DNA of 30,097 nucleotides from positions 1 to 30,097 of the forward strand of contig CAWDVE010000026.1 in the NCBI GenBank assembly GCA_963805625.1, read 5' to 3'. The first letter of the stretch is position 1. Every line of letters starts with the position of its first letter. The notes beneath the pieces are model-generated. The model was given only the letters and a program-made list of their open reading frames with translations. It did not search any database and was not told the origin of the DNA. The stretch comes from an uncultured Candidatus Rokubacteria bacterium. Its GTDB lineage: Bacteria; Methylomirabilota; Methylomirabilia; Rokubacteriales; DASRDR01. The translations under genes were made by a program, and so were the position numbers. This document shows positions 1,016 to 30,038 of the stretch, piece after piece.

Positions 1016-1047
1016 CGTCGCAATGTCGCGCCGGCGACAACCTGACG
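1016..1047. promoter_or_regulatory. Putative sigma54-activator enhancer (UAS), core TGTCG-N6-CGACA at 1024-1039
   Basis: CGTCG caa TGTCG cgccgg CGACA acc TGACG; 82 nt upstream of the -24/-12 motif at 1122. Confidence 0.75.
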
Positions 1048-1121
1048 CGAGAATCTTGCGCTCCGCGCCGAAGAGTGGAACGTTCGGTCGGTCTTTCCGC
1101 CTCTCCGCGAGCGACGCCCGG

Positions 1122-1136
1122 CGGCATGGAACTTGC
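1122..1136 (+). promoter_or_regulatory. Sigma54 (-24/-12) promoter
   Basis: CGGCATGGAACTTGC = GG-N10-GC, matching consensus TGGCACG-N4-TTGC; precedes RBS and ATG 1174. Confidence 0.75.
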
Positions 1137-1173
1137 CCGTCATTCGTCTCAAGCACTGGCAAGGGAGGTTTCA

Positions 1174-1392
1174 ATGACGAAGACTGACATCGGATGGACG
1201 ACCCCACTCGCGGGCCTCGTGCTCGCCTCGACACTCCTCGCGGCGTGCGGCACGGTGGGTGGCGCCGCAGTGGGCGCGGGTTCCGGCGCGGCGATAGGAG
1301 CCGGGACCGGTTATGGCGCCGGCAAGGGCGCGCTCATCGGCACGGGCGTCGGCGCGGCCGCGGGGGCAATCTACGACATCATGAAGAAGTGA
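1174..1392 (+). CDS. Glycine-zipper small lipoprotein
   Basis: RBS AGGGAGG; lipobox LAAC; repeated GxxxG zipper GAAVGAGSGAAIGA...GTGVGAAAGAI. Confidence 0.85.
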   Translation: MTKTDIGWTTPLAGLVLASTLLAACGTVGGAAVGAGSGAAIGAGTGYGAGKGALIGTGVGAAAGAIYDIMKK

Positions 1393-1398
1393 GGGGGC

Positions 1399-1671
1399 GT
1401 GATGAAGATCTGGACACGGTTCAGCATGACCATCGCCGCCCCGATCCTGCTGTGGAGTGGGATGGCCCTCGGGCAGTCTGCGAACCCTCCGGCGCACCAG
1501 GGCGCGACCCCCCGGACGGTGGAGGGTCACATCGTCAAGATCGACCGGACCCAGGGACGGGTGACGATCCGAGCCGCCGACGGCACGATGCATGAGTTCC
1601 AGGCCTCGAAGGAGACCCTCCAGGATCTGAAGGAGGGCGATCCCATCGAGGCCCGGCTCCGCCAGCCGTAG
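1399..1671 (+). CDS. Small secreted OB-fold-like protein (DUF1344/CusF-like)
   Basis: Signal peptide; 'VEGHIVKID...VTI...LKEGDPIEA' pattern; start is GTG 1399 or ATG 1402. Confidence 0.7.
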   Translation: MMKIWTRFSMTIAAPILLWSGMALGQSANPPAHQGATPRTVEGHIVKIDRTQGRVTIRAADGTMHEFQASKETLQDLKEGDPIEARLRQP

Positions 1672-1695
1672 CGGCTGGCTGGACCCAGCCAGCCG
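1672..1695. terminator. GC-rich hairpin directly after the stop codon
   Basis: cggctggctgg-ac-ccagccagccg inverted repeat; no clear U-tract. Confidence 0.5.
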
Positions 1696-1784
1696 GTTGC
1701 CGGTCGACAGGCGCAGGCGATCGGGGGACGGGGCGCGGCCTTCGACACTTGAGAGCCACGCCCCGTCCTCCTGGGAAAATAGCA

Positions 1785-2396
1785 ATGTTCTCACTACTCA
1801 TCGATGGTTGGTTTCGGGAGCATCTCTATGCCGTCGTGTTCCTGGGCGCCATCGTCGGTGCGGTCGGGATCCCCTTTCCCGGTCGGCTCATGCTGATAGC
1901 GGTGGGATCCATCTCCAACCCCGTTTCGGGCACGGGCGCCAGCGCGTGGGTCCTGATCGGGCTTGCGACGCTCGGCACCGTGGCCGGCGACCACGCCTGG
2001 TACTTGGTCGGACGGCTGAAGGGTCGACGGCTGTTCGAGCTCTACTGTCGTGTCTTCCGTCTCACGACCTCGCGGATGGACGCGGCGGACCGCTTCCTGC
2101 GGCGCTTCGGCGGCGTGGCGTTGCTGTTCGCCAGAGTGGCCGTGACGCTTCGAGTGCTGGTGGCGCCGCTCGCACTATCGCGCGGCATGTCGTATGTGCG
2201 CTTCGTAGCGTTCGACCTCCTGGGCGCTCTCCTGTGGGTCACGGGGTTCGTGTGGCTCGGCCGGACTGTTGGGACCCTGACGTCAGGGAGTGAACTCGTC
2301 GGGACCCTCACGATTGTCGGCATTCTGGGGGCCGCCAGCGCCGTCATCAGCGTACTCGCCCGCCGCCGTTTCGCCGGCCGCGTCAGCGTGTCGTGA
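1785..2396 (+). CDS. DedA/VTT family membrane protein
   Basis: 'GIPFPG', 'GTVAGDHAWYLVGR', 'RFGGVALLFAR', 'MSYVRFVAFDLLGALLW'; ATG 1785. Confidence 0.85.
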   Translation: MFSLLIDGWFREHLYAVVFLGAIVGAVGIPFPGRLMLIAVGSISNPVSGTGASAWVLIGLATLGTVAGDHAWYLVGRLKGRRLFELYCRVFRLTTSRMDAADRFLRRFGGVALLFARVAVTLRVLVAPLALSRGMSYVRFVAFDLLGALLWVTGFVWLGRTVGTLTSGSELVGTLTIVGILGAASAVISVLARRRFAGRVSVS

Positions 2397-2668
2397 CCGC
2401 CACGGATCAATACCGAAGACTCGTTCCAATCGGCTGTGCCCCGTGGCCACTCTGAATGGGATTGTGAGCGCCGCCGCCCAGCGGAGGTGCCTCGGACACA
2501 CGAGTGAGGAGAGTGAAGAGAAAGGGACGGGAAGCGGGCCCGACCGCCCGCTCCCCGCAGTGTGGCTAGGAAATCTCCTTCATCGGCTGACCGCAGCAGT
2601 TGCCCGGTCTGTCCGACAGATGTCCGCACTTCTCACAGCGATATTGATGCGCCACGAGTTTCACCTCC

Positions 2669-2986: not shown

Positions 2987-3005
2987 GGCACGCCCTCCGC
3001 CGTCG

Positions 3006-3250: not shown

Positions 3251-3261
3251 ATCAGGCTCCG

Positions 3262-3641: not shown

Positions 3642-3656
3642 GCAAGTCGCGTGCCG
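3642..3656 (-). promoter_or_regulatory. Sigma54 promoter
   Basis: Minus strand CGGCACGCGACTTGC. Confidence 0.8.
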
Positions 3657-3733: not shown

Positions 3734-3765
3734 CGTCACGGTGTCGCCGCGGCGACACCGTGACG
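3734..3765. promoter_or_regulatory. UAS; perfect 32-bp palindrome (core 3742-3757)
   Basis: CGTCA cgg TGTCG ccgcgg CGACA ccg TGACG; 85 nt upstream of the promoter at 3642-3656. Confidence 0.8.
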
Positions 3766-4862: not shown

Positions 4863-4877
4863 GCAATCAAGATGCCA
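4863..4877 (-). promoter_or_regulatory. Sigma54 promoter for the PRC-BON gene
   Basis: Minus strand TGGCATCTTGATTGC. Confidence 0.8.
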
Positions 4878-4986: not shown

Positions 4987-5018
4987 CGCCACGCTGTCGT
5001 GGCGACGACACCATGGCG
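4987..5018. promoter_or_regulatory. UAS shared by divergent sigma54 promoters (core 4995-5010)
   Basis: CGCCA cgc TGTCG tggcga CGACA cca TGGCG. Confidence 0.75.
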
Positions 5019-5117: not shown

Positions 5118-5132
5118 TGGTACGGAAGTTGC
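5118..5132 (+). promoter_or_regulatory. Sigma54 promoter for the treZ operon
   Basis: TGGTACGGAAGTTGC. Confidence 0.7.
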
Positions 5133-5147: not shown

Positions 5148-7028
5148 GTGCGAATCCGAAGCAGCTCGCCTCCGACATGGCGGCGTCTGCCGATTGGAGC
5201 AGAGCTCGCCCCTAAGGGAGGCGTGCACTTTCGCGTCTGGGCCCCAGGGGCCGCGCAGGTCGAGGTCGAGCTGGACGACCGGCGGGTTCGTCTCGACGCG
5301 GAGCCCCACGGGTACCACTCCGGCCTCGTTCCCGCAGTCGAAGCCGGCATGAGTTACGCGTACCGGCTAGACGGGGGCTCGGCCTGCCCCGATCCGGCGT
5401 CCCGGTTCCAGCCTGCCGGACCCCACGGGCCGTCCGAGGTCGTCGATGCGGCCGCCTTTTCCTGGACCGATGACCGGTGGCCGGGCGTCACCCGCGAGGG
5501 CCAGGTCCTGTACGAGATGCACATCGGGACATTCACGAGCGCCGGCACGTGGGACGCGGCCAGCCGCGAGCTACCGGAGCTGGCGCGGGCGGGCATCACG
5601 GTGGTGGAGGTACTGCCGGTCGCCGACTTCGTGGGCGACTTCGGTTGGGGCTACGACGGCGTCAACTTCTTCGCCCCGACGCGGCTCTACGGCCGGCCCG
5701 ACGACTTCCGCGCCTTCGTGGATCGGGCCCACGCGGCCGGTCTGGGCGTGATCCTGGATGTCGTGTACAACCACTTCGGCCCGGACGGCAACTACCTCGG
5801 CCAGTTCGCTCCCCACTATCTCAGCCCGCGTCACCGGACGGACTGGGGCACGGCGATCAACTTCGACGGAGGGGGCTCCGAACCGGTCCGCGAGTTCTTC
5901 GTCTCGAACGCCGGCTACTGGATCGACGAGTTTCACCTGGACGGGCTCCGGCTGGATGCCACGCAGGACATCCACGACGATTCCCCGGAGCACGTGTTGA
6001 CGGCGATCGCGCGCCGGGCGCGGGAGAGCGCCGGCCGCCGATCGGTGTTCCTCGTCGCCGAGAACGAGCCGCAGGACGTGAGGCTCGTCCGCGCGGTGGC
6101 GGCCGGTGGCCACGACCTCGACGCCCTGTGGAACGACGACTTCCACCACTCCGCCACCGTCGCCCTCACCGGGCGGGCGGAGGCGTACTTCAGCGACCAC
6201 GCCGGGACGCCTCAGGAGCTGATCTCGGCCGTCAAGCGGGGGTATCTCTACCAGGGCCAGCGATACGCATGGCAGGGGAAGCCGCGTGGCACACCCGCGT
6301 GGGACGTGGGGCCGACGTCCTTCATCAACTTCCTCCAGAACCACGACCAGGTCGCCAACTCGCAGGCAGGGCTCCGCTGCCATCGGCTAACCAGCCCCGG
6401 CCGATACCGCGCCATGACCGCGCTGCTCTTGCTGGGCCCGGCGACCCCGATGCTGTTCCAGGGTCAGGAGTTCGCCGCCTCGAGCCCCTTCCTCTACTTC
6501 GCCGATCTCCCGCCCGAGCTGGCAAAGGTGGCGCGGGTGGGCCGCGCGGAGTTCCTGGCCCAGTTTCCGAGCCTGGCCGGGGCCGAGGCGCAGGCAGCGC
6601 TACCAGACCCGGCCGATCGCCTCACCTTCGAGCGCTCGAAGCTCGACCTCGGCGAGCGCGAGCGGAACGGCGCAGCCTATGCTCTCCACGTCGACCTCCT
6701 CCGATTGCGGCGGGAGGACCCGGTGTTCCGCACACAGGGCAGCGGCGGCGTGGACGGCGCCGTCCTCGGACCCGAGGCGCTCGTCCTCCGGTTCTTCGGT
6801 GTGGGCCTCGATCCCGACGATCGGCTGCTCTGCCTCAACCTGGGTCGCGATCTCGCCCTCCCGGCGGTCGCCGAGCCCCTGCTCGCGCCGCCCGAGGGCA
6901 TGCGCTGGAGCCTCCTCTGGTCCAGCGAGGCCATCCGCTACGGCGGCGCCGGCACGCCCGAGGCCGATCCCGCCGACAGCTGGGTCCTGCCGGGCCACAC
7001 CGCTCTCGTCTTCGGCTCCTCGCGATGA
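5148..7028 (+). CDS. treZ: Malto-oligosyltrehalose trehalohydrolase (GH13)
   Basis: 'FRVWAP', 'DPASRFQPAGPHGPS', 'YEMHIGTFT', 'WGYDGV', 'DVVYNHFGPDGNY', 'DGLRLDA', 'QNHDQVAN', 'PMLFQGQE'; start uncertain, GTG 5148 preferred because 5112 lies upstream of the promoter. Confidence 0.92.
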   Translation: MRIRSSSPPTWRRLPIGAELAPKGGVHFRVWAPGAAQVEVELDDRRVRLDAEPHGYHSGLVPAVEAGMSYAYRLDGGSACPDPASRFQPAGPHGPSEVVDAAAFSWTDDRWPGVTREGQVLYEMHIGTFTSAGTWDAASRELPELARAGITVVEVLPVADFVGDFGWGYDGVNFFAPTRLYGRPDDFRAFVDRAHAAGLGVILDVVYNHFGPDGNYLGQFAPHYLSPRHRTDWGTAINFDGGGSEPVREFFVSNAGYWIDEFHLDGLRLDATQDIHDDSPEHVLTAIARRARESAGRRSVFLVAENEPQDVRLVRAVAAGGHDLDALWNDDFHHSATVALTGRAEAYFSDHAGTPQELISAVKRGYLYQGQRYAWQGKPRGTPAWDVGPTSFINFLQNHDQVANSQAGLRCHRLTSPGRYRAMTALLLLGPATPMLFQGQEFAASSPFLYFADLPPELAKVARVGRAEFLAQFPSLAGAEAQAALPDPADRLTFERSKLDLGERERNGAAYALHVDLLRLRREDPVFRTQGSGGVDGAVLGPEALVLRFFGVGLDPDDRLLCLNLGRDLALPAVAEPLLAPPEGMRWSLLWSSEAIRYGGAGTPEADPADSWVLPGHTALVFGSSR

Positions 7029-9109
7029 GCGATCTGATCCGCCGGATCCCGTGGCCCGGTCGCGACGATCCCGAGCGGGGCCGGTCGGCGACTCGCGAAT
7101 GGTTGGTCACGAATGGGCTCGGCGGCTACGCGTCTGGCACGGTGTCCACACTGATGACGCGGCGCTACCACGGGCTCCTGATCGCCGCCCTTCCGGCGCC
7201 GCTCGGCCGGATGAACATGCTGAGCCACCTGCACGAGCGGCTCGACCTGCCGGACGGCGGCGTCGCCGCCACGACCGTTGGCTGGGAGGCCACCGGGGCC
7301 GGAAAGCCCGCGGAGGTGCTGGATCTTGCCGAGTTCCGTCTCGAGCTGGGCCTGCCCGTGTGGCGGTACGAGCTTGGTCAGCTCGTCCTGGAGAAGCGCC
7401 TACTCGTTCCGTACCGCCAGAACACTGTCCACGTCAGCTATCGACTCGTCTCGGCCCCGGGGCCGGTCAGTCTTCAGGTGCGACCGGCCGTCCACTTCCG
7501 CCCGCACGAACGCCCGGTGAGCGATCCCCTCACCGGTCCCTATGGCCTCACGGTCCTGGGGGACCGTTACGAGCTGTTCGGGAGCCCGGAGTTCCCGCGG
7601 CTGCGCCTCCGGACACACGGCCCGCCGGCCGCCTTCCGCGTCTCGGGTCACACGATCCAGCATGTCCTGTATCCCTCGGAGCGGAGTCGCGGATACGAGG
7701 CGACCGGCGACCTCTGGAGTCCGGGCTACTTCCGCATGACACTCGAGCCGGAGGGCACGGGCACGATCGTTGCCTCGACCGAGCCCTGGGAGGCCATCGA
7801 CGCGCTCGATCCGGAGACCGCGTTGCGGGCCGAACAGGTGCGTCGGCGGCGACTCCTCTCGGCCGCCCATCCCCGGGCCCGCACCGGGCCCGCGGCCGAG
7901 CTCGTGCTGGCTGCCGACCAGTTCGTGGTGACGCCGGCAGGTCGCGTGGCCGACACCGCGCTCATCCGGGCCACGGGGGACGAGGCGCGCACGATCATCG
8001 CCGGCTATCACTGGTTCACCGACTGGGGCCGCGACACCATGATCGATCTCGAAGGGCTGACCCTGCTGACGGGCCGCCACGTGGAGGCCGGCTACATCCT
8101 TCGTACCTTCGCCCACTACGTGCGGGACGGCCTCATTCCCAACATGTTCCCCGAGGGCACCCGCGAGGGCCTCTACCACACGGCCGACGCCAGCCTCTGG
8201 TATTTCCACGCTATCGACCGCTATGTCCGGGCGACGGGGGATCGCGAGACGCTCCGTCTCCTCCTGCCCACGCTTCTCTCGATCGTCGACCACCACGTGC
8301 GGGGCACGCGGTTCGGCATCGGAATCGATCCGACGGACGGCCTCCTGCGCCAGGGCGCGGCCGGGTACCAGCTCACGTGGATGGACGCCAAAGTCGAGGA
8401 CTGGGTGGTGACGCCGCGACGCGGCAAGGCGGTCGAGATCAACGCGCTCTGGTACAACGCCCTCCGGCTCCTCGAGGGGTGGATGCGCGAGGAGCAGGGC
8501 GACGACACGGCGGGGCCGCTGTCGACCCGCGCGGACCAGGTCCGCACGGCGTTCAACGCTCGCTTCTGGTACGCCGACGGCGGCTACCTCTACGACGTGA
8601 TCGATGGCGAGAGCGGTGACGATCCCGCCTGTCGGCCCAACCAGCTTCTCGCCATCTCACTCTCTCATCCCGTCCTGGCCGAGACGCGCTGGGCGTCGGT
8701 CCTGGCGGTGGTCCGGGAGCGCCTGGTCACGCCACTGGGGCTACGCACCCTGGCCCCGGGCCATCCCGACTACAAGGCGACGTACGACGGAGATCTCCGG
8801 GCTCGCGATGCTGCCTACCACCAGGGCACGGTGTGGCCCTGGCTTATCGGCCCCTTCGTCGACGCGTGGCTCCGGGCTCACCCCGAGGACCGCGCGCACA
8901 CCCGCCAGCTCCTGGATCGCCTCTGGTCCCATCTCGACGAGGCGTGCGTCGGGAGCATCAGCGAGATCTTCGATGCAGAACCTCCGTTCACGCCCCGCGG
9001 GTGCATCGCGCAGGGCTGGAGCGTGGCCGAGGTGCTCCGCGCCGTGATCCTGGCTGCGGAGCCAGGGCCGCCGGAATCGACCCCTCCCCGACAGGAAGGA
9101 CGACCATGA
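7025..9109 (+). CDS. Glycogen debranching enzyme / amylo-alpha-1,6-glucosidase (GDE_N + GDE_C)
   Basis: ATGA overlap with the treZ stop; 'REWLVTNGLGGYASGT...TRRYHGLL', 'IIAGYHWFTDWGRDTMI', 'QLTWMDAK', 'AVEINALWYNAL', 'YHQGTVWPW', 'ISEIFD'. Confidence 0.92.
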   Translation: MSDLIRRIPWPGRDDPERGRSATREWLVTNGLGGYASGTVSTLMTRRYHGLLIAALPAPLGRMNMLSHLHERLDLPDGGVAATTVGWEATGAGKPAEVLDLAEFRLELGLPVWRYELGQLVLEKRLLVPYRQNTVHVSYRLVSAPGPVSLQVRPAVHFRPHERPVSDPLTGPYGLTVLGDRYELFGSPEFPRLRLRTHGPPAAFRVSGHTIQHVLYPSERSRGYEATGDLWSPGYFRMTLEPEGTGTIVASTEPWEAIDALDPETALRAEQVRRRRLLSAAHPRARTGPAAELVLAADQFVVTPAGRVADTALIRATGDEARTIIAGYHWFTDWGRDTMIDLEGLTLLTGRHVEAGYILRTFAHYVRDGLIPNMFPEGTREGLYHTADASLWYFHAIDRYVRATGDRETLRLLLPTLLSIVDHHVRGTRFGIGIDPTDGLLRQGAAGYQLTWMDAKVEDWVVTPRRGKAVEINALWYNALRLLEGWMREEQGDDTAGPLSTRADQVRTAFNARFWYADGGYLYDVIDGESGDDPACRPNQLLAISLSHPVLAETRWASVLAVVRERLVTPLGLRTLAPGHPDYKATYDGDLRARDAAYHQGTVWPWLIGPFVDAWLRAHPEDRAHTRQLLDRLWSHLDEACVGSISEIFDAEPPFTPRGCIAQGWSVAEVLRAVILAAEPGPPESTPPRQEGRP

Positions 9110-9483
9110 CTCAGACGACGGCGCGCGCATTCGGCGTCGTGTTCCTGCTGGTCGGGGTCCTCGGCCTCGTCACGACCCCGTTCTCGATGACCAGCGAGCT
9201 CCTCCTCCGCCTCTTCCCCGTCAACGTGCTACACAACCTCGTGCACCTGGCGTTCGGCGGGTGGGGACTGGTCGCGAGCGGCACTCCGAACAGGGCAACC
9301 GCGTACTGCCGGATCGGCGGGATCGCGTACCTCACGCTGGCCGTGGTGGGGGTCCTGACGCCGACGGGGTTCGACCTCGTCCCTCTCGGCGGCCACGACA
9401 TCTGGCTCCACGCGGTCCTCGGCGGCGTCCTGGCGGCCGTCGGCTTCCTGGCCCGGCCCAGTCCGGCCCCGAGTCGGCGCTGA
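9106..9483 (+). CDS. DUF4383-like membrane protein
   Basis: ATGA overlap; four hydrophobic segments; 'FPVNVLHNLVHL' and 'DIWLH' motifs. Confidence 0.75.
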   Translation: MTQTTARAFGVVFLLVGVLGLVTTPFSMTSELLLRLFPVNVLHNLVHLAFGGWGLVASGTPNRATAYCRIGGIAYLTLAVVGVLTPTGFDLVPLGGHDIWLHAVLGGVLAAVGFLARPSPAPSRR

Positions 9484-11767: not shown

Positions 11768-11782
11768 ACACGCTTCATGCCG
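11768..11782 (-). promoter_or_regulatory. Variant sigma54 promoter (GG-N10-GT)
   Basis: Minus strand CGGCATGAAGCGTGT; the -12 element is imperfect but the UAS lies 92 nt upstream. Confidence 0.5.
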
Positions 11783-11874
11783 AGTCTCCCCGCGGCGAAG
11801 GAACGGGAATTCGTCCGGAAACAGGTTCGAATCGGCGGAGCGCCGCACCTCGCGCGCTCAGTGACGACTACGCG

Positions 11875-11898
11875 TGTCGCCACCGCGACAGGGTGTCG
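11875..11898. promoter_or_regulatory. UAS (core 11875-11890)
   Basis: TGTCG ccaccg CGACA ggg TGTCG. Confidence 0.7.
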
Positions 11899-16072: not shown

Positions 16073-16087
16073 GCAATCTCTGTGCCG
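16073..16087 (-). promoter_or_regulatory. Sigma54 promoter for the micro-protein / PBP / phosphatase operon
   Basis: Minus strand CGGCACAGAGATTGC. Confidence 0.8.
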
Positions 16088-16161: not shown

Positions 16162-16193
16162 CGCCATGGTGTCGCCGCCGCGACACCAGGACG
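16162..16193. promoter_or_regulatory. UAS between divergent promoters (core 16170-16185)
   Basis: CGCCA tgg TGTCG ccgccg CGACA cca GGACG. Confidence 0.75.
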
Positions 16194-16237: not shown

Positions 16238-16252
16238 CGGCATGGGTTTCGC
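16238..16252 (+). promoter_or_regulatory. Sigma54 promoter for the AI-2E gene
   Basis: CGGCATGGGTTTCGC (GG-N10-GC). Confidence 0.55.
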
Positions 16253-18526: not shown

Positions 18527-18558
18527 GGCCACGATGTCGCGCCAGTGACACCCTGGCG
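18527..18558. promoter_or_regulatory. UAS with one core mismatch (core 18535-18550)
   Basis: GGCCA cga TGTCG cgccag TGACA ccc TGGCG. Confidence 0.65.
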
Positions 18559-18672: not shown

Positions 18673-18687
18673 GGGCAGCCAAGTTGC
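18673..18687 (+). promoter_or_regulatory. Sigma54 promoter for csbD / BON / DUF3309
   Basis: GGGCAGCCAAGTTGC. Confidence 0.7.
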
Positions 18688-19061: not shown

Positions 19062-19367
19062 ATGCGACACCTGTTCCGTTCCATGCTCATGCTGGCCATG
19101 CTCGTGGCCGTTACCGCCGGCTGTACGGCAATGACGGGGAAGTCGGCCGGCGAGAACGTCGACGACACCAAGATCACCGCGTCGGTGAAGAGCAAGCTCG
19201 CTGGCGAGAAGCCCGCGACCCTGACGAAGGTCGACGTCGACACGAATAAGGGCACCGTCTACCTCACCGGCAACGTCGAGAACTCGGCCATCAAGGCGCG
19301 GGCAACCGAGCTGGCGCGCGAGGTCTCCGGCGTCCGAGAAGTCGTCAACAACCTGAAGGTCCAGTAG
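19062..19367 (+). CDS. BON domain lipoprotein
   Basis: Lipobox TAGC; 'VDDTKITASVKSKL..VDVDTNKGTVYLTG..VSGVREVVNNLKVQ'. Confidence 0.9.
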   Translation: MRHLFRSMLMLAMLVAVTAGCTAMTGKSAGENVDDTKITASVKSKLAGEKPATLTKVDVDTNKGTVYLTGNVENSAIKARATELAREVSGVREVVNNLKVQ

Positions 19368-19448: not shown

Positions 19449-19601
19449 ATGACGACCCTTCTGGTGATCCTGCTGGTCCTGCTCGTCGTGGGGGCGCTGC
19501 CCACGTGGCCCTACAGCAGCGGCTGGGGCTACTACCCCAGCGGCGGGCTGGGCTTGGTCCTCATCATCCTGTTGATCCTGTTCCTAACAGGACGCATCTG
19601 A
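19449..19601 (+). CDS. DUF3309 family small membrane protein; absent from the ORF track
   Basis: MTTLLVILLVLLVVGALPTWPYSSGWGYYPSGGLGLVLIILLILFLTGRI*; RBS GGGGAGG. Confidence 0.9.
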   Translation: MTTLLVILLVLLVVGALPTWPYSSGWGYYPSGGLGLVLIILLILFLTGRI

Positions 19602-20135: not shown

Positions 20136-20150
20136 GCAAGCCATGTGCCT
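20136..20150 (-). promoter_or_regulatory. Sigma54 promoter
   Basis: Minus strand AGGCACATGGCTTGC. Confidence 0.8.
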
Positions 20151-20225: not shown

Positions 20226-20257
20226 CGTCATGCTGTCGGGCTCACGACATGGTGACA
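20226..20257. promoter_or_regulatory. UAS between divergent promoters (core 20234-20249)
   Basis: CGTCA tgc TGTCG ggctca CGACA tgg TGACA. Confidence 0.78.
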
Positions 20258-20321: not shown

Positions 20322-20336
20322 TGGCACACGGCTTGC
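20322..20336 (+). promoter_or_regulatory. Sigma54 promoter
   Basis: TGGCACACGGCTTGC, near consensus. Confidence 0.85.
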
Positions 20337-20380: not shown

Positions 20381-20767
20381 ATGGAAGATCGAGTTCGCAG
20401 AGGGAACGCCGCAGCAGAGGAACCGGTGGGCGAGTGGGCGAGGTCCGAGATGAGCGACCTTGCCGATACCGCTCGACAGCGCATGCAGGCGACCAAGGGC
20501 GGGGCCAAGGAGCACGTCGCGGAGGCGAAGGATTACGTCCAGGGGGCCGTCCAGCAGACGAAGGAGTACGTCGAAGGCGCTCGAGAGTACATCGGCGACA
20601 CCGTCCAGCAGGCGCGCGACAAGGTCACCGAGTACCGGGACGGCGGTGTGGAGAAGTTGCGGCACGACCTCGTGGGTTATACGCGCGAGCAACCGATGAC
20701 CGCGCTGCTCATCGCGGCAGGCGCCGGGCTCGTGCTCGGCTGGCTGAGCGCCGCGGGCCGTCGCTGA
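20381..20767 (+). CDS. DUF883/ElaB/YqjD-like tail-anchored protein with LEA-like helical repeats
   Basis: RBS AGGAGG; C-terminal 'YTREQPMTALLIAAGAGLVLGWL..RR'. Confidence 0.8.
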   Translation: MEDRVRRGNAAAEEPVGEWARSEMSDLADTARQRMQATKGGAKEHVAEAKDYVQGAVQQTKEYVEGAREYIGDTVQQARDKVTEYRDGGVEKLRHDLVGYTREQPMTALLIAAGAGLVLGWLSAAGRR

Positions 20768-20794: not shown

Positions 20795-21190
20795 GTGACA
20801 ACCCGGCGCGTGGGCGAATCGGTAGGCCTCCTGGAGCTGGCGGCGCGACTCGTCGCCGACCTCCGCCAGCTCATCGATCAGCGCCTCGAGCTCCTCAGGG
20901 CCGAGCTTACGCAGGAGGCGACGCGCGCCGCGAAGAACATCGGCGTGCTGGTTGCGGGGGTCATCGGAGCGGGCGTCGGAGCCGCCTTCCTGCTGCTTGC
21001 CCTGGGGCTGTGGATCGGACATCTCGTCGGCTCGGGGCCAGGAGGTTTGGCCATCGTCGGCGGCGGTCTCGTCATCGCCGGCGTGGGGCTCAGCCTCCTG
21101 GCGACCAAAAGCCTGGAACGCCAGCGGCTCGCCCGAGAGACGGTTCGCGAGCTGCGAAGGGACGTGGAATGGATTCGCAACGGAGTGTAG
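20795..21190 (+). CDS. YqjE-like 'phage holin family' membrane protein
   Basis: 'LIDQRLELLRAEL', two TM helices, 'ETVRELRRDVEWI'. Confidence 0.8.
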   Translation: MTTRRVGESVGLLELAARLVADLRQLIDQRLELLRAELTQEATRAAKNIGVLVAGVIGAGVGAAFLLLALGLWIGHLVGSGPGGLAIVGGGLVIAGVGLSLLATKSLERQRLARETVRELRRDVEWIRNGV

Positions 21191-21708
21191 ACATCGACCG
21201 TCTGCGTCGTGACATCGAGGCGACTCGCGCCTCAATCTCCCGGACCGCGGGCGAGCTGCGCTGGAAAGCGGGTGAGGCCATGCAGTGGCAGACCTACGTC
21301 GAGCGATACCCCGCCACGATCCTGGGGGCGGCCGCCCTGCTAGGGATCGCCGTCGGCCGCCGAATCGCGCGCGGGATCCAGAGTAATGGCCAGCAGCACG
21401 GCAATGGCCTTCAGTGGACATCTGCTGCCGCGGGCATGGATACCGTTGCCCGAATCCCGGCGCGACTGGAGCCACAAGTCAATCACCTCGTGGCGGTCAC
21501 CGCCTCATGGCAGAAGCTCGGCTCCCGCATCGAAGGGCTGGTGAACCGGATGATCGACGACGTCGCCGACGCGGCTGAGCGGGTGATCGTGCCCGCCCTC
21601 GTCGCCGGCGTCGAAGGCTTCCTTGGTAAGGCGGCTCGACCGGTATCCCGACCGGCCCCGCCGAATCGCACGTCCGCCCCCGGGATGGGGGAAGGGAGAT
21701 CGGCATGA
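21169..21708 (+). CDS. DUF3618-like protein
   Basis: ATG 21169 overlaps the previous gene; 'LRRDIEATRASISRTAGEL...WQTYVERYP..LGAAALLG'. Confidence 0.75.
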   Translation: MDSQRSVDIDRLRRDIEATRASISRTAGELRWKAGEAMQWQTYVERYPATILGAAALLGIAVGRRIARGIQSNGQQHGNGLQWTSAAAGMDTVARIPARLEPQVNHLVAVTASWQKLGSRIEGLVNRMIDDVADAAERVIVPALVAGVEGFLGKAARPVSRPAPPNRTSAPGMGEGRSA

Positions 21709-22127
21709 GTCCCATGAAGCTCGATCGGCGCATCATCGCTGAGCTGGAGCGGTTCCTGCGGGACGAGCTGACTCGTCTTCAGGGGTCCTTGCGAGCCGTC
21801 GTTACCGAGGCCCGCACGGCCGAGAGCACGAGTCTGACGGACATGTCCGTTCACGCCGCGGAGACCCTCCATACGGAGATCCAAGTGACGCTGATGGATC
21901 AGCGGACTCAGCAGGTCGTCCAGATCCAGGATGCGCTCGCGCGGCTGTCTGACGGCCGGTACGGCTTTTGTCAGGAGTGCGACGCGTTCATCGGCGTACC
22001 TCGCCTTCGCGCGCTCCCCTTCGCCCTGCGTTGCCGTGACTGCCAGGGTCAGGCGGAGCGGCGAGCCCGTCGGGAGGCGATACTGGTCCGCCAGCTCCCA
22101 CGCGAGATTCCCCTCGAAGCCGCCTGA
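21705..22127 (+). CDS. TraR/DksA C4-type zinc finger protein
   Basis: ATGA overlap; 'IQDALARLSDGRYGFCQEC...IGVPRLRALPFALRCRDCQ'. Confidence 0.88.
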   Translation: MSPMKLDRRIIAELERFLRDELTRLQGSLRAVVTEARTAESTSLTDMSVHAAETLHTEIQVTLMDQRTQQVVQIQDALARLSDGRYGFCQECDAFIGVPRLRALPFALRCRDCQGQAERRARREAILVRQLPREIPLEAA

Positions 22128-22626: not shown

Positions 22627-22658
22627 CGTCAGGCTGTCGAACGGACGACAAGGTGTCG
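22627..22658. promoter_or_regulatory. UAS (core 22635-22650)
   Basis: CGTCA ggc TGTCG aacgga CGACA agg TGTCG. Confidence 0.78.
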
Positions 22659-22736: not shown

Positions 22737-22751
22737 GGGCACAGAGCTTGC
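22737..22751 (+). promoter_or_regulatory. Sigma54 promoter
   Basis: GGGCACAGAGCTTGC; 86 nt downstream of the UAS. Confidence 0.78.
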
Positions 22752-22808: not shown

Positions 22809-23060
22809 ATGCCACGGTACCCGCGCTTCCGCCGAGGTCGTGACCCCTACGGTCCCGAAGCCCTTCTGGAACGGGCACGTCGCTGGTCGGACGCACACGT
22901 GACATTCGACCGGACCGCCGACGTGAGTGGCCGGTGCCCTCACTGCGACGCGCTCGTCACACGCCGCCTGGGCCCCGGGGTGCTGTGCGGCACGTGCGGC
23001 CGGCTGTGGGTGGTGCGGGAGATGCTCGATCGCGAGACCGGCCTCACGGGAGCCGCCTGA
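22809..23060 (+). CDS. Small zinc-ribbon protein
   Basis: RBS AAAGGAG; CPHC...CGTC. Confidence 0.7.
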   Translation: MPRYPRFRRGRDPYGPEALLERARRWSDAHVTFDRTADVSGRCPHCDALVTRRLGPGVLCGTCGRLWVVREMLDRETGLTGAA

Positions 23061-23089: not shown

Positions 23090-23545
23090 ATGAAGTCGAA
23101 GGTTCTGCACGCTGACGGCGCCCGCACGATCGCCCTCGTGTTCGAGGCCGGCGAGGAGCCCATGCGGGGCCTCCTCGACTTCGCGAAGCGCGAGCGGCTC
23201 ACGTCGGGGCACTTCACGGCGATCGGCGCGTTCGAGGACGTGACGCTGGGCTATTTCGACTGGTCCCAGAAGGACTACGTGCGGGTTGCCATCGGCGAGC
23301 AGGTCGAGGTGCTGTCTCTGGTGGGGGACGTGGCGCTCGAGGGCGCCATGCCCAAGGTCCACGCGCACGTCGTCGTGGGCAAGCGCGACGGGACCGCGCA
23401 CGGTGGACATCTCCTGGAGGCGCGCGTCCGGCCGACCCTGGAGGTCATCCTGATCCAGCCGCCCGGGCACCTGCGGCGGCGCTTCGACCCCCGGTCGAAG
23501 CTGGCTCTCATCGACGTCGAGGAGGTCCGAGATGGCTCGATGTGA
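23090..23545 (+). CDS. PPC/DUF296 domain protein
   Basis: 'HFTAIGAF..VTLGYFD', 'EVLSLVGDV', 'HAHVVVG..DG..HGGHLL..VRPTLEV'. Confidence 0.88.
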   Translation: MKSKVLHADGARTIALVFEAGEEPMRGLLDFAKRERLTSGHFTAIGAFEDVTLGYFDWSQKDYVRVAIGEQVEVLSLVGDVALEGAMPKVHAHVVVGKRDGTAHGGHLLEARVRPTLEVILIQPPGHLRRRFDPRSKLALIDVEEVRDGSM

Positions 23546-23762
23546 CGTCTGCGGAAACGACTATGACAAGACTCTGTCGATAGACGCCTGAGGGCGCCGG
23601 CACACCTTCGACTGCTTCGAGTGTGCCATTCATCTGCTGGCGCCCACCTGCGATCACTGTGGGTGCCGGATTGTCGGACACGGAGTGGAAGACGCGGATG
23701 ACCGGATCTACTGCTGCGCCCACTGTGCGCGCCAGGTCGGGGTGTCACAGCTTCGCGCCTGA
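23532..23762 (+). pseudogene. Cys-rich metallothionein-like / zinc-binding protein interrupted by an in-frame TGA at codon 20
   Basis: MARCDVCGNDYDKTLSIDA*GRRHTFDCFECAIHLLAPTCDHCGCRIVGHGVEDADDRIYCCAHCARQVGVSQLRA*. Confidence 0.75.
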
Positions 23763-25778: not shown

Positions 25779-26192
25779 TCAGCTCGCTCGGGGCTCGTCT
25801 CCTGACCGCGAGACGAGGCCATCGATGGCATCGCGGAGCTGCCCGAGTTTGAAGGGTTTCTCGAGATAGCTGGCCGCGCCGAGCCGCAGCGCGCTCGCCG
25901 CGACCTGACCGCCGCCGAACGCGGTCACGAGCACCACGGGCACCTGCGGAAACTCGCGATGCAGCACCGGCAGGAGGTCGAGACCAGTGAGCCCAGGCAT
26001 CTCCTTGTCCAGGATGATCAGATCGAACGGCGCCCCGCGGAGCGTCTCCACCACGCGCGTGCCACGATCCCGCTCCGTCACCTGGAATCCGTCGGCTTCG
26101 AGCGTTCTGCGCAGGAGAGCCCGCATCTCGTCGTCGTCATCGACGACGAGCACCCGCGCGGTCGGCCCCGGACGGTCGTCGGCCTCACGCAC
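25779..26192 (-). CDS. Single-domain response regulator (REC)
   Basis: VLVVDDD, ILDKEMPG, VTAFG, YLEKPF; GTG 26192 follows GGGAGG (alternative ATG 26228). Confidence 0.9.
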   Translation of the reverse strand: MREADDRPGPTARVLVVDDDDEMRALLRRTLEADGFQVTERDRGTRVVETLRGAPFDLIILDKEMPGLTGLDLLPVLHREFPQVPVVLVTAFGGGQVAASALRLGAASYLEKPFKLGQLRDAIDGLVSRSGDEPRAS

Positions 26193-26241: not shown

Positions 26242-26256
26242 GCAAAGCGCGTGCCA
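26242..26256 (-). promoter_or_regulatory. Sigma54 promoter (consensus) for REC / NTase / phosphoesterase
   Basis: Minus strand TGGCACGCGCTTTGC, just after the activator stop codon. Confidence 0.8.
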
Positions 26257-26258
26257 GA

Positions 26259-27626
26259 TCATGACGACTGCTGGTCCGTGAACCCTGGGCCCACGCGCAT
26301 CATGTTGGCCTGCATCCGCTGAAGTGTCCGTACGCTGATCCCGAGGATACGGGCCGCGGCCCGCTTGTCGCCTCGGACCTCGTCGAGGACGCGGCGGATG
26401 TACTGGCTCTCCACCTCGGCCAGGGATGGGCGCACCCCCAGCTCGCCGGTCGAGCCGGGGGTGAACTCGATCCGGAGGTCGTCCCGCGTGATGTGCCGGC
26501 CCTTGGCGAGGGTCGCCGCCCGCTCGACGACGTTCTCCAACTCGCGGACGTTCCCCGGCCAGTTGTGCTCGAGGAGCCACTTGAGTGCCTCCTCGTCAAA
26601 GCCTTCGATCTCCTTGCCCATCCCGGCCGCCGCCCGCTTCAGGAAGTGCTCGGCGAGAAGCGGGATGTCCTCCGGCCGTTCCTTGAGGCTGGGGATCCGG
26701 ATGGGGATGACGGCCAGACGGTAGTAGAGGTCCTCCCGGAACTTCCCCTGCCGCACGAAGGCCGGCAGATCCCGGTTGGTCGCGCTGATGAGACGCAGAT
26801 CCACCTTGATCTCCTCGTTGCCGCCCACAGGCCGGACGACGCGGTCCTGGAGGGCACGGAGCAGTTTGACCTGCAGTGACTGGGGCATCTCGGCGATCTC
26901 ATCGAGAAGGAGGGTGCCACCCTGGGCCTCAACGAAGAGGCCCCGCCGCTTCCGGTCAGCGCCGGTGAAGGCTCCCCTCTCGTGGCCAAACAGCTCGGAT
27001 TCCAGCAGGGTCTCAGGAATGGCCGCACAGTTGACGGCGACGAACCGACCCTCGCGCCGGCCGCTGTGCCAGTGGATCGCCCGCGACACGAGCTCCTTGC
27101 CCGAGCCGCTGTCGCCCAGGAGCAGGACCGGAGCATCGGTGTCCGCCACCACCCGGATCTGCTCGAACACGGCCTCCATCGCCTTCGACCGGCCGAGGAT
27201 ATTGTCGAAGCTGTAGCGGCGCTCGACCTCGGCCCGGAGCCGACGGTTTTCCTCCCGGATCTGCTGGTCCTCCACGGCCCGCTTGACGACCAGCGACAGC
27301 TCCGGAAGCTTGAAGGGCTTGGTCAGGTAGTCGTACGCGCCCTGACGCATGGCATCGATCGCGCTCTCGAGGCTCCCGAACGCGGTCATGAGGATCACGC
27401 GCGCCCGTGGCTGGACGCGCTGGGCCTCTCGAAGCACGGCCAGGCCGTCCACCGGCTCCATGACGAGGTCAGTCAGGACGACCGCGTACTCCTCGCGCCC
27501 GAGCGCGGTCTGGGCGTCCTCCCCTCCCGTCACGGCCGTCACCGCCCAGCCTTCCACCTCCAGATGACGCCTGAGAAGCGCCACCATATCGGGATCGTTG
27601 TCCACCACGAGGATTCGGGGCTTCAT
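26259..27626 (-). CDS. Sigma54-dependent response regulator (NtrC/AtoC/ZraR family: REC-AAA+-Fis HTH)
   Basis: GDSGSGKE, ESELFGH, GAFTGA, LLLDEI, FREDLYYRL, WPGNVRELEN, HTH 'AARILGISVRTLQR'. Confidence 0.95.
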   Translation of the reverse strand: MKPRILVVDNDPDMVALLRRHLEVEGWAVTAVTGGEDAQTALGREEYAVVLTDLVMEPVDGLAVLREAQRVQPRARVILMTAFGSLESAIDAMRQGAYDYLTKPFKLPELSLVVKRAVEDQQIREENRRLRAEVERRYSFDNILGRSKAMEAVFEQIRVVADTDAPVLLLGDSGSGKELVSRAIHWHSGRREGRFVAVNCAAIPETLLESELFGHERGAFTGADRKRRGLFVEAQGGTLLLDEIAEMPQSLQVKLLRALQDRVVRPVGGNEEIKVDLRLISATNRDLPAFVRQGKFREDLYYRLAVIPIRIPSLKERPEDIPLLAEHFLKRAAAGMGKEIEGFDEEALKWLLEHNWPGNVRELENVVERAATLAKGRHITRDDLRIEFTPGSTGELGVRPSLAEVESQYIRRVLDEVRGDKRAAARILGISVRTLQRMQANMMRVGPGFTDQQSS

Positions 27627-29101
27627 GACTGCTCCTTCCTGTCTTCAGGCCCGGCCTCTGGAAGCCAGACGGTGAAGGTGGTGCCCTCGCCGGGCGTGCT
27701 CGCCACGTGGATCTCGCTTCCATTTGACCTCACGAGGTCCCGACAGATGGCGAGGCCGAGACCGGCCCCTTCGCGAGCGGGCTTGGTGCTGAAGAAGGGA
27801 TCGAAGATCCGGGGTAGGACGTTCTCCGGGATCCCTGCGCCCGTGTCCCGCACCGTGATGACAACGCCGGGCCGACCTTCGTCGGCCCGGCGGGCACCCT
27901 TGACCTCGACCCGCCCCCCCGCCGGAGTCGCTTCGATGGCGTTCGTCAGGAGGTTGATCAGGACCTGCTGGAGGTGCCCGGGGTCGACGCACACCTGCGG
28001 AAGGGCCGGCGGGATCGAGACCGCGAGGGTCACGCCGCGACCCTTGGCGAAGTGCTGGAGAAGCGGCCGCAGCGCGTCCGTGACCGACGCGGGCGCGACA
28101 GCCGCTCGCTCGGGCTCTCGCTGGCGGAAGGGATCCAGGGCCGCACGGATCATCCGGGAGATCCGGTCGATCTGGGTGATGATGACGTTGAGGTCTTCGC
28201 GGAGCGGCGAGTCCGTTGGCAGCGCGCGGAGTGTCAGCTCGGCGCGCCCGGCGATGATGTTGAGCGGCGTCCCCACCTCGTGGGCCATGCTCGAGCAGAG
28301 CTTGCCGGCGATCGCGAGCGACTCGGTCTGTCGTAGCCGGCGCATGAGCTCGAGCGACCGGTCCGTCTCGGTCTCCGCCCGCCCGCGAGCGTCCTCCAGC
28401 CGTTCTGTCATCCGGTTGAAGGCCGCCGCCACCTTCCCCAGCTCGTCGCGGCTCCGGACCGGGACGGGCGCGCGGGACTCGCCGGCCGCGACACGCTCGA
28501 TGCCCTGCATCAGGTCGGCGACCGGCCGGAACACGAGGCGCTGCAGGGCCACCCAGACAACGAGGCCCAGCAAGAGGACGAGGACACCGCCCCGCAGCGC
28601 GATCTTGTAGCTCTCGCCCAGAAGTTCGGCCTCCAGGCGGCCCGCGATGAAGGCGATCTCGAGCACCCCTTCGTCGTTCCCGGAGGACCGGACCGGGAGC
28701 AGCATCGTGTGGAGCCGGATGCCGCCACTCTGGTGCTCCACGACCGCAGGCTGGCCCGTGTCCCGGACCTGGCGATGTCGATCGAGGGGCACGCCGGGGT
28801 CGCCGGTGAGAAGGTTCGCGTCGACGCGTGGCGAAAGGCTCCGGTCGAGCAATCGGATCCGGACGATCTCGGTTTGCTTTACGACCAGATCACGGGCCAG
28901 ACGCTCCACGTCGACCGGCGTGCCGCTGCGAAGCGCGTTCTCCACCGCGAGTCGGATCGCCGCGCTCGTGACGCTCACGCGCAGGTCGAACTCCGCCCGC
29001 CGCTGGGCGCGCTCATCCTGGACTAGAACGTATGCGAAGAGGGCGACGACCAGCACCATCGGCACGAGGAGGAGTAGGAACAGGCGAAGTCTCAGCCCCA
29101 C
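27623..29101 (-). CDS. Membrane sensor histidine kinase (2 TM, extracytoplasmic sensor, HAMP, HisKA, HATPase)
   Basis: HAMP 'RDELGKVAAAFNRM'; H-box AHEVGTPLN; N-box QVLINLLTNA; DTGAG, FDPFFSTK, GAGLGL; ATGA overlap with the regulator. Confidence 0.95.
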   Translation of the reverse strand: MGLRLRLFLLLLVPMVLVVALFAYVLVQDERAQRRAEFDLRVSVTSAAIRLAVENALRSGTPVDVERLARDLVVKQTEIVRIRLLDRSLSPRVDANLLTGDPGVPLDRHRQVRDTGQPAVVEHQSGGIRLHTMLLPVRSSGNDEGVLEIAFIAGRLEAELLGESYKIALRGGVLVLLLGLVVWVALQRLVFRPVADLMQGIERVAAGESRAPVPVRSRDELGKVAAAFNRMTERLEDARGRAETETDRSLELMRRLRQTESLAIAGKLCSSMAHEVGTPLNIIAGRAELTLRALPTDSPLREDLNVIITQIDRISRMIRAALDPFRQREPERAAVAPASVTDALRPLLQHFAKGRGVTLAVSIPPALPQVCVDPGHLQQVLINLLTNAIEATPAGGRVEVKGARRADEGRPGVVITVRDTGAGIPENVLPRIFDPFFSTKPAREGAGLGLAICRDLVRSNGSEIHVASTPGEGTTFTVWLPEAGPEDRKEQS

Positions 29102-29121
29102 GGGGGCCTCAGTTTAGCACG

Positions 29122-29164
29122 CGTCCGACGCGCGACAGCCCGGCGTGCGGGCGACAGGGTGGCG
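29122..29164. promoter_or_regulatory. Degenerate tandem UAS between the kinase gene and the divergent sigma54 promoter
   Basis: CGTCC gacgcg CGACA gcc CGGCG tgcggg CGACA ggg TGGCG; 82 nt from the promoter at 29239. Confidence 0.55.
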
Positions 29165-29238
29165 TTGAGCCTCGAGGCATTCTCATCGATTTCGCGGGTA
29201 GTTGCCGCACGCGGACACATGCGGGGCGGCGACTCCAC

Positions 29239-29253
29239 TGGCACGTGCCTTGC
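29239..29253 (+). promoter_or_regulatory. Sigma54 promoter (consensus)
   Basis: TGGCACGTGCCTTGC. Confidence 0.85.
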
Positions 29254-29417
29254 TCCGCTCGCCCACTCAGAAGGTGCGGATCGATCCAGTGCCAGGGAGA
29301 ACGAAGCGCATGAACCGCAGCATCGCCTGTAGCGGGGAAGAGGGCGGCGAACGTTGACGACGCAGCCAGCCTCGCTCGTTCGATCGACCGAACGCGCGAG
29401 TACGGACGGAGCAGAAT

Positions 29418-29729
29418 ATGAAGAGTCGGTCCATCCTGGAAGGGCTCCTGATGTCGCTCCTGCTCCTGGGCGGCTGCTACATGCCGCCCAGGACGATGCA
29501 GGCCCCGCCACCGCCGCCCGCGGCTCCCGTGGAAGCGGTGCCGGCGCAGCCCGGCCCGAGCTACGTCTGGGTCCCCGGGTCCTACACGTGGCAGCCGGCC
29601 AGCCGGACGTACGTCTGGGTGCCGGGACATTGGACCATCCCCCCACAGGGCTTCGTCTGGGTGCCGGGCCACTGGGAGACACAGGCGACTGGCTCGGTGT
29701 GGGTCGATGGGCAGTGGCGTCACAACTGA
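29418..29729 (+). CDS. YXWGXW-repeat lipoprotein
   Basis: Lipobox LGGC; Pro linker; YVWVPGSY, YVWVPGHW, FVWVPGHW, VWVDGQW. Confidence 0.88.
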   Translation: MKSRSILEGLLMSLLLLGGCYMPPRTMQAPPPPPAAPVEAVPAQPGPSYVWVPGSYTWQPASRTYVWVPGHWTIPPQGFVWVPGHWETQATGSVWVDGQWRHN

Positions 29730-29808
29730 CGGCAGGGGTGCACGGTCCATGCCGCCGGGTCGCGTGATGCCCTCCGCCGGTGCGGGGACACCCTGTCCAC
29801 CCTGCCCC

Positions 29809-29940
29809 GTGACAACCCCGACGCCTAGCCAGCCGGCGAAGGGCTCCGAGGTCCAAATGGTTCGGTGTAAGGCGCACGGTATCGCGTACGACAGCGAGAG
29901 GGAGGTGTGTCCAGAGTGCGCCAAGGGGCCATCCGCTTGA
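29809..29940 (+). CDS. Small CxxH...CxxC zinc-finger-like protein
   Basis: ...MVRCKAHGIAYDSEREVCPECAKG*; start uncertain. Confidence 0.55.
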   Translation: MTTPTPSQPAKGSEVQMVRCKAHGIAYDSEREVCPECAKGPSA

Positions 29941-30006
29941 ACTCGGTAACCCGCGCGGGATAGTCTCGCCAGCTCGAAATCCGACGACTGTCGCGTCGCC
30001 CGGCGC

Positions 30007-30038
30007 CGTCAGGATGTCGCCCACGCGACATGATGTCG
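30007..30038. promoter_or_regulatory. UAS (core 30015-30030); target promoter predicted beyond the window end
   Basis: CGTCA gga TGTCG cccacg CGACA tga TGTCG. Confidence 0.72.

Follow-up and report, generated by a model that had tools for sequence, protein, structure and literature searches.

In model bacteria, general stress genes are run by a dedicated sigma-70-family factor, and SigB governs the general stress regulon of Bacillota. The 30,097-nucleotide stretch analysed here (the window) is the entire contig C26 of an uncultured Candidatus Rokubacteria genome (G000; 7.27 Mb, 69% G+C) and carries genes of general-stress families behind sigma-54 promoter motifs and a 32-bp enhancer. We propose that a sensor kinase and an NtrC-type regulator encoded on this island probably co-activate stress-survival and envelope genes as a general-stress regulon through sigma-54 and the enhancer. 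The target families, CsbD/YjbJ, YtjA, OsmY/BON, trehalose/glycogen enzymes and LigD, are shared with the general stress regulons of RpoS in enterobacteria, EcfG-NepR-PhyR in Alphaproteobacteria and SigB; yjbJ and ytjA were under RpoS control in Salmonella (PMC5437024), osmY, otsBA and glycogen genes were RpoS-controlled in E. coli (PMC2907692), and csbD and ku-ligD were EcfG targets (PMC7083833). The system differs from RpoS, EcfG and SigB in its -24/-12 promoters with an enhancer and in its predicted control, which would act by phosphorylation of an AAA+ activator and not by release or stabilisation of a sigma factor.

Three described sigma-54 systems come closest. [quoted passage not shown] DVU3303-3304-3305 of Desulfovibrio vulgaris likewise comprises a kinase and a REC-AAA-HTH (helix-turn-helix) activator, labelled 'general stress' and autoregulated, but the tested oligonucleotide contained GTTGCG-N4-GCAAC, the targets were few operons (UspA, Kdp, a transporter), the partner was Lon-fused and the activator carried GAFSGA (PMC3333781, PMC4641369). 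The present system is set apart from it by site and partner, as the site differs and no Lon-receiver gene was found in the window. NmpRSTU of M. xanthus also has an NtrC-like regulator, whose site served to define a sigma-54 regulon of several operons; it differs in its oxygen-utilisation targets and haem-kinase phosphorelay (PMC11841059). Ralstonia rpoN2 was discarded as a precedent (PMC4371752 has 0 occurrences of 'stress'), and the main text of PMC12316311 mentions no Methylomirabilota, Rokubacteria, CsbD, general stress, trehalose or glycogen. The initial annotation had claimed an architecture different from RpoS, SigB and EcfG; this stands in that sigma-54 promoters and an enhancer precede RpoS/EcfG-type families, and needs qualifying in that sigma-54 general-stress activators were proposed before (Nla28, DVU3305). 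In the literature outside subscription journals, neither this regulon nor sigma-54 control of a csbD/ytjA/BON/treYZ set was found described. On sequence evidence, the regulon appears real, well supported and undescribed, with a probable activator that can be named.

Sigma-54 promoter motifs and the 32-bp enhancer

All 13 of the -24/-12 motifs listed by the initial annotation were recovered, each facing its downstream gene:

1122..1136, plus strand: sigma-54 motif, predicted start about 1148
3642..3656, minus strand: sigma-54 motif
4863..4877, minus strand: sigma-54 motif
5118..5132, plus strand: sigma-54 motif
11768..11782, minus strand: degenerate sigma-54 motif with a poor -12 box, position weight matrix (PWM) score 4.0
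16073..16087, minus strand: sigma-54 motif
16238..16252, plus strand: sigma-54 motif
18673..18687, plus strand: sigma-54 motif
20136..20150, minus strand: sigma-54 motif
20322..20336, plus strand: sigma-54 motif, exact consensus
22737..22751, plus strand: sigma-54 motif
26242..26256, minus strand: sigma-54 motif, exact consensus, directly after the activator stop
29239..29253, plus strand: sigma-54 motif, exact consensus

The pattern GGCAY-N5-TTGC occurred 11 times in the window against 0.30 expected, a count reached in 0 of 100 shuffles; nine matches were promoter sites of the initial list and two were intragenic (7760 and 25452). Four of the 13 promoter motifs deviated, with TGGTAC at 5118, GGCAG at 18673, a terminal TCGC at 16238 and the poor -12 box at 11768. 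The promoter orthologous to this last one in genome G011 scored 12.9 and lies 98.5 bp from its enhancer. Enrichment of a loose sigma-54 consensus allowing two mismatches was only mild (39 vs 21.7). Six RNA runs contained 5-9% of the sequence words, and the four that were compared were contigs, with similarity mostly below 95% and some sequence from other organisms.

The enhancer spans 32 bp, CGWCA-N3-TGTCG-N6-CGACA-N3-TGWCG in the alignment of the ten window copies, and can be read as a pair of 13-bp palindromes, CGWCA-N3-TGWCG, set 19 bp apart. Its core, TGTCG-N6-CGACA, was found eight times in the window against 0.06 expected. The earlier statement that 12 promoters have the same palindrome upstream was borne out, 12 of the 13 having one at 61-132 bp (enhancer centre to promoter GG). 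Nine of the ten copies pair with these 12 promoters, three copies being common to divergent promoter pairs:

1016..1047: enhancer 1, PWM score 32.4, 91.5 bp to the 1122 promoter
3734..3765: enhancer 2, PWM score 36.2, 94.5 bp to the 3642 promoter
4987..5018: enhancer 3, common to the divergent 4863 (126.5 bp) and 5118 (116.5 bp) promoters
11867..11898: enhancer 4, PWM score 22.3, 101.5 bp to the 11768 promoter
16162..16193: enhancer 5, common to the 16073 (91.5 bp) and 16238 (61.5 bp) promoters
18527..18558: enhancer 6, PWM score 26.1, kept before csbD in 10 genus genomes
20226..20257: enhancer 7, common to the 20136 (92.5 bp) and 20322 (81.5 bp) promoters
22627..22658: enhancer 8, PWM score 32.0, 95.5 bp to the 22737 promoter
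29133..29164: enhancer 9, ends 31 nt before the kinase start, best partner of the 29239 promoter
30007..30038: enhancer 10, promoter beyond the contig end

Enhancer 9 likely overlaps the promoter of the kinase operon. In a second copy of the island, on contig C17, enhancer 10 precedes genes for a nucleoside triphosphate (NTP) transferase, glgX and treY.

Across the genome, the window-derived PWM detected 55 enhancers, compared with 3 in the reversed genome, and 51 of the 55 were intergenic by the gene calls made in this analysis. When pairs of G.CA-N3-TG.C units were searched for without bias as to spacing, 20 matches had the enhancer spacing and 0-4 fell at each of twelve others. A third tandem palindrome was unsupported. 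Among the first 80 genome loci matching the exact pattern, 35 were titled Rokubacteria or Methylomirabilota, and a sigma-54 motif (score at least 10) lay within 150 bp at 31 of these 35 vs 9 of the 45 others.

Pairing of enhancer and promoter extended beyond the training sites. Beyond the window and its C17 copy lie 37 enhancers, 17 of which had a sigma-54 motif (score at least 12) within 260 bp, compared with 3% of 2667 random intergenic points. Enhancer-promoter distances clustered near 71, 82, 92, 104 and 114 bp, with a best period of 10.75-11 bp (R 0.45, n = 111, orthologues not being independent); phasing was also present in this genome alone (R 0.49, n = 22, p about 0.005) and in a separate metagenome set (R 0.44, n = 51 pairs, some nif promoters included). 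The genome has the features of an enhancer-dependent sigma-54 regulon, namely rpoN, -24/-12 boxes, a palindromic upstream activator sequence at distances within 60-150 bp and helical phasing. Conservation of the motif pair upstream of orthologues, proposed earlier as a check, was found at csbD, where 10 of the 11 genus genomes having a CsbD match carry both boxes.

The palindromic sequence, and one Planctomycetota genome with 17 near-identical repeat-borne matches, might instead indicate a small repeat or an RNA hairpin beside incidental sigma-54 motifs. Among 140 unique sites, however, information dropped to background beyond the 32 bp, and spacer bases barely paired (0.29-0.51 vs 0.28-0.43 in shuffled sequences). 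These flank-conservation and spacer-pairing analyses largely refute a repeat or hairpin, and with the helical phasing and the co-occurrence with one regulator described below, it is highly improbable.

The enhancer core fits TGT-N10-ACA, the consensus of the NifA upstream activator sequence. The island regulator differs from NifA in having a REC and not a GAF domain and the helix SVRTLQR in place of TPRQxGY, and the Rokubacteria enhancer has both outer arms conserved. An assignment of the regulator to NifA was rejected (score 361 vs the NifA cut-off of 529); the genome lacks a detectable nifH, and a NifA regulon does not describe it. Separately, nifB-like and fdxN-like promoters and nifA-like gene ends in other records (L135, L339, L346, L353, L361, L363 and L386) match TGTCG-N6-CGACA-N3-TGTCG, which suggests that some NifA sites have an extra outer arm.

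The island regulator and its sensor kinase

Two overlapping genes encode the proposed regulatory pair, the kinase gene overlapping the activator gene from upstream and being adjacent to it in relatives too:

26259..27626, minus strand: NtrC-type enhancer-binding response regulator, REC-AAA+-HTH_8 (Pfam REC, Sigma54_activat, HTH_8)
27623..29101, minus strand: sensor kinase with two transmembrane helices, an extracytoplasmic PAS/Cache-like domain, HAMP, HisKA and HATPase

The activator has the properties of an NtrC-type (group I) bacterial enhancer-binding protein, with REC, AAA+ and Fis-type HTH domains, a phosphoacceptor Asp, GAFTGA and intact Walker A/B motifs. D53, GAFTGA and the helix SVRTLQR were invariant across nine orthologues, and homologues 94-95% identical were named Methylomirabilota; together with the locus titles given above, these names place the organism in Ca. 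Rokubacteria (Rokubacteriales). The kinase sensor domain had no Pfam match; its predicted fold (pLDDT 78) resembles the extracellular PAS/Cache domain of WalK (4ywz, E 2.5e-6). A plasmid search with the activator HTH gave one weak match.

Orthologue and enhancer co-occurred among the 118 order-level genomes that were at least 85% complete. Both were present in 44 genomes, the orthologue only in 2, the enhancer only in 13 and neither in 59, so that 44 of 46 genomes with the orthologue carried the enhancer compared with 13 of 72 without it; G018 was counted as orthologue-free, yet a partial orthologue is present. The pattern held inside genera (G029 vs G027; G167 among the 12 genomes of g16; G125 among the 4 of g26). 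G013, with 1 site, was without activator, kinase, csbD and treZ.

Sites also lay near the gene. In 19 of 20 other-genus genomes with listed sites, a site was at most 7 kb from the orthologue, and in nine of them it was within about 100 bp of the orthologue's end. A site ended 28-32 nt before the kinase start in 11 of 11 genus genomes examined, including G010, whose strict-pattern count was 0. A metagenomic activator, 45% identical and with the same ISVRTLQR helix, had a full site just past its stop. Because of the co-occurrence and the proximity of site and gene, the island's NtrC-type regulator (26259-27626) with its sensor kinase is the likely reader of the enhancer. Several other genera carry an enhancer at the place matching the 26242 region, and this genus is without it. 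The activator C-terminus is about 17 residues longer in this genus (window 26259-26315) and covers that place; the downstream sigma-54 motif is retained.

With about 38 sigma-54 activator domains in the genome, another activator might read the enhancer, the island regulator being a mere neighbour or target. Other genera have a different activator beside sigma-54-preceded csbD/DUF1328 genes, and one rival activator only was compared across genomes. That rival's closest relative in this genome (C10:737449), however, does not track the site: it was present in seven genomes with 0-2 sites (G013, G023, G025, G028, G030, G035 and G040) and was not detected in three that carry both sites and the island regulator (G024, G016 and G020); a site directly after the orthologue of the island regulator in nine genomes also makes another reader improbable. 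The earlier claim of one activator therefore holds in that one cognate activator can be named for the 32-bp enhancer, and fails in that other stress-type genes with sigma-54 sites lack the enhancer.

Proposed mechanism and scope of the response

The proposed mechanism is of the standard NtrC type. Motifs, pairing, phasing, conservation and regulator co-occurrence come from sequence and comparison, and we infer the remaining steps from the established NtrC-family mechanism. The kinase would sense an extracytoplasmic cue and phosphorylate Asp53 of the regulator; two regulator dimers would bind the two 13-bp palindromes and then oligomerise; and DNA looping would bring the bound regulator to the sigma-54 holoenzyme at a distance of 60-135 bp, the regulator using ATP to open the promoter. 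Autoregulation would come from the site 31 nt before the kinase, and feedback from the stand-alone receivers. The result is a predicted, complete regulatory map from sequence alone for an uncultured soil lineage, with sensor, activator, binding site and 20-40 sites per genome. Should stress prove to induce the targets through RpoN, a fourth case would have to be added to the textbook rule of a dedicated sigma-70-family factor, and the motif could become a marker of stress state in soil metatranscriptomes.

Several observations weigh against a general-stress regulon read by this regulator. The 26242 promoter has no enhancer of the 32-bp type (best score -3.3), and 20 of the 37 non-training enhancers, including the copies upstream of ligD, of the rsbRST stressosome operon and of the gas-vesicle region, had no sigma-54 motif of score at least 12 nearby. 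The 13 of 72 orthologue-free genomes with the enhancer hold 1-5 loose matches, the related genomes in the co-occurrence count are not independent, and in G006 and G007 (68-71% complete) enhancer sites were present and no orthologue was found. None of the 13 csbD loci scored in other genera had the enhancer. A group-2 sigma gene lies in an intact locus in the canonical surE-pcm-acyP-nlpD-rpoS order. Finally, with many envelope or secreted proteins among the targets, the system may respond to a narrower trigger than general stress.

The stress function is suggested by the target families. Regulon and activator could nevertheless serve an envelope-stress response, with RpoS running a wider stationary-phase programme and perhaps driving the same genes too, through separate promoters. 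The extracytoplasmic, WalK-like sensor domain (4ywz) would suit such a role, as would the lipoproteins and membrane peptides encoded by many first genes, the genes for PBP1b (a penicillin-binding protein), MlaC, RlpA-like, DedA and cardiolipin-synthase-like proteins, and the intact surE-pcm-nlpD-rpoS-like locus; the module's few targets in other genera are mostly receivers and small proteins. We consider this unlikely, though worth weighing, as cytoplasmic survival genes also carry the enhancer-promoter pair (treZ, treS-like, NTP-transferase/glgX/treY, topoisomerase IB, CBS and glyoxalase-family genes), and a general-stress regulon remains the preferred explanation.

Other sigma factors and the wider sigma-54 network

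One rpoN was found in the genome, a point that the initial annotation had proposed to check. It had also asked whether rpoS, sigB and ecfG are lacking: no group-3 (SigB-type) sigma factor and no NepR were found, and an RpoS-like gene is present. Seven of the eight best PDB matches of this RpoS-like factor were RpoS, and its TIGR02394 score of 291 was below the cut-off of 379; neither a sigma-54 box nor the enhancer was found upstream of its gene. A second RpoD-like sigma factor (512 aa) is encoded at C13:267131-268669.

The enhancer accompanied 27 of 133 strong, oriented intergenic sigma-54 sites (both alleles counted). The sigma-54 matrix also recovered sites before glnK-, glnA- and pilin-like genes, named from sequence reading; glnK, glnA and pilin genes are known sigma-54 targets. 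Because of this fraction, the RpoS-like locus and a cluster on C19 without the enhancer, the enhancer regulon makes up one large part of the sigma-54 network and is not demonstrably the sole stress system; the genome does not present it as a sole replacement of RpoS, SigB and EcfG. The C19 cluster (C19:313-409 kb) has dense, strong sigma-54 motifs before universal stress protein-, CBS- and Hsp20-like genes, without the 32-bp enhancer, and is probably a second, hypoxia-type regulon.

Distribution of the regulon

Enhancer pattern counts were 19-43 in 10 of 14 other genomes of the genus (11 in G007, 4 in G006, 1 in G013 and 0 in G010). Genomes of other genera had 0-7, and the large regulon is specific to this genus. 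Most Rokubacteriales having the module carry 1-7 sites compared with 19-43 in this genus, where the module likely took over the csbD/BON/ytjA/treYZ/treS-type set alongside the RpoS-like factor. A sigma-54 motif lay within 100 nt at 3 of the 13 csbD loci of other genera (28 of 30 surveyed loci used, two sub-cut-off loci omitted, one too short). Stress clusters of G030, G036, G038 and G039 had sigma-54 motifs without the 32-bp enhancer, with a different activator nearby in G030, G036 and G039, and no sigma-54 motif was found in the stress regions examined of G019, G016, G018 and G020. Twenty sigma-54 upstream regions from other genera showed no alternative palindrome in common.

Outside the phylum, a motif of score at least 12 lay within 300 nt before csbD at 3 of 12 Acidobacteriota and 5 of 19 Myxococcota loci vs 1 of 31 antisense (p 0.026; 12 of 15 and 19 of 29 loci used, tandem-domain and sub-cut-off loci omitted), which gives modest support to a wider sigma-54 habit. 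We tentatively suggest that sigma-54 with an exchangeable activator might be a fourth, unrecognised general-stress architecture, common in soil phyla: in Rokubacteria, Myxococcota and Acidobacteriota alike, the CsbD/YtjA/BON/trehalose set would keep -24/-12 promoters as activators swap, and in this genus one kinase-activator pair, with a site that is readable from sequence, would recently have captured the whole set.

No large regulon with the 32-bp site was found among 301 Planctomycetota genomes. Perfect enhancers with a sigma-54 motif 84.5 bp off were seen in stress clusters of a Planctomycetia genome (L075, 3001-3030) and of L370 (1493-1524), likely a planctomycete contig whose nearest named relatives are mostly Planctomycetota. 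Two records titled 'Binatia' with orthologue and site were not counted as another phylum, as the class search around one of them gave Methylomirabilia genomes. Many Pandoraea species (L034, L035, L042, L046 and others) have a conserved, perfect 32-bp palindrome with no sigma-54 motif near, and it was treated as unrelated.

Predicted target genes

The target families named by the initial annotation were largely confirmed: Pfam/NCBIfam supported CsbD, DUF1328/YtjA, two BON proteins, PRC, DUF3309, holin-X (YqjE-type), TreZ, a GH133 debrancher, DksA/TraR, AI-2E and VTT/DedA, and the ElaB/YqjD-like open reading frame (ORF) at 20450, without a Pfam match at 1e-5, keeps its name by resemblance only. 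TreZ scored 588 bits with TIGR02402 (cut-off 538.8), and the debrancher was above the TIGR01561 cut-off. The genes behind each promoter are:

After 1122, plus strand: glycine-zipper lipoprotein 1174-1392, secreted protein 1402-1671, VTT/DedA protein 1785-2396
After 3642, minus strand: 24-aa membrane peptide 3566-3492, lipoprotein-like ORF 3456-3262, DUF1328/YtjA 3176-3006, DUF1344 2986-2669
After 4863, minus strand: PRC-barrel/BON protein 4804-4100, then a truncated Fe/Mn superoxide dismutase remnant
After 5118, plus strand: treZ about 5148-7028, GH133 glycogen debrancher 7025-9109, DUF4383 9106-9483
After 11768, minus strand: secreted protein 11725-11336
After 16073, minus strand: 25-aa membrane peptide 16031-15954, class A penicillin-binding protein (PBP1b-like), phosphodiesterase
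After 16238, plus strand: AI-2E family transporter (to 18144)
After 18673, plus strand: csbD 18766-19008, BON lipoprotein 19062-19367, DUF3309 19449-19601
After 20136, minus strand: hydrophilic 127-aa ORF 20063-19680
After 20322, plus strand: ElaB/YqjD-like ORF 20450-20767, holin-X/YqjE-type protein 20795-21190, DUF3618-like ORF, DksA/TraR zinc finger 21705-22127
After 22737, plus strand: 83-aa ORF 22809-23060, PCC-domain protein 23090-23545, Cys-rich ORF
25779..26192, minus strand: stand-alone receiver (REC) gene, then nucleotidyltransferase and metallophosphoesterase
After 29239, plus strand: WXXGXW-repeat lipoprotein 29418-29729

The two hydrophobic peptides of 24-25 aa (3566-3492 and 16031-15954) are paralogous, each is the first gene behind an enhancer-linked promoter, and neither has a Pfam match.

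Elsewhere in the genome both boxes precede genes for a TreS-like amylase, a cardiolipin-synthase-like phospholipase D (PLD), topoisomerase IB, PRC, CBS, glyoxalase, BrkB/YihY, M48 peptidase and RlpA-MlaC proteins and several stand-alone receivers. The NTP transferase-glgX-treY operon (glgX and treY named by sequence resemblance) has the enhancer and a weak promoter. The enhancer without a clear promoter was found at ligD, a GH15 trehalase-like gene, rsbRST and the gas-vesicle region. The general-stress target set is present, with CsbD, YtjA, OsmY/BON, trehalose/glycogen and non-homologous end joining-type families, ligD having the enhancer and no clear sigma-54 motif.

The gas-vesicle cluster (L006; C17:624.7-633.5 kb) lies inside the stress island and encodes two GvpA/J-type proteins, K, three L/F, G and an ArsA-like ATPase, with a PAS kinase and a receiver embedded; upstream are an enhancer (634179) and a sigma-54 motif (633901) about 280 bp apart. 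The rsbR-rsbS-rsbT-SpoIIE stressosome operon (L297; C16:357-364.4 kb) feeds two hybrid kinases in a genome in which no SigB was found, and has a strong enhancer (29.2) 176 nt upstream and no sigma-54 motif.

A second allele of the island

The second island copy lies inverted at C17:643-674 kb, with 99% identity at both ends, 87-97% between and many frames broken; C26 is probably the allele of a second strain (a strain bubble). The C17 allele has a full Fe/Mn superoxide dismutase, a PLD gene and DUF6496, which are absent or truncated in the window, and it lacks the PBP1b block present there. Informative positions were 96% identical between the alleles in the enhancers (n = 80) and 98% identical in the sigma-54 motifs (n = 64), compared with 85.5% in other intergenic DNA. 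In the Cys-rich ORF (window 23532-23761), an in-frame TGA stands at a position encoding Trp in the C17 allele; this TGA is a mutation or a sequencing error.

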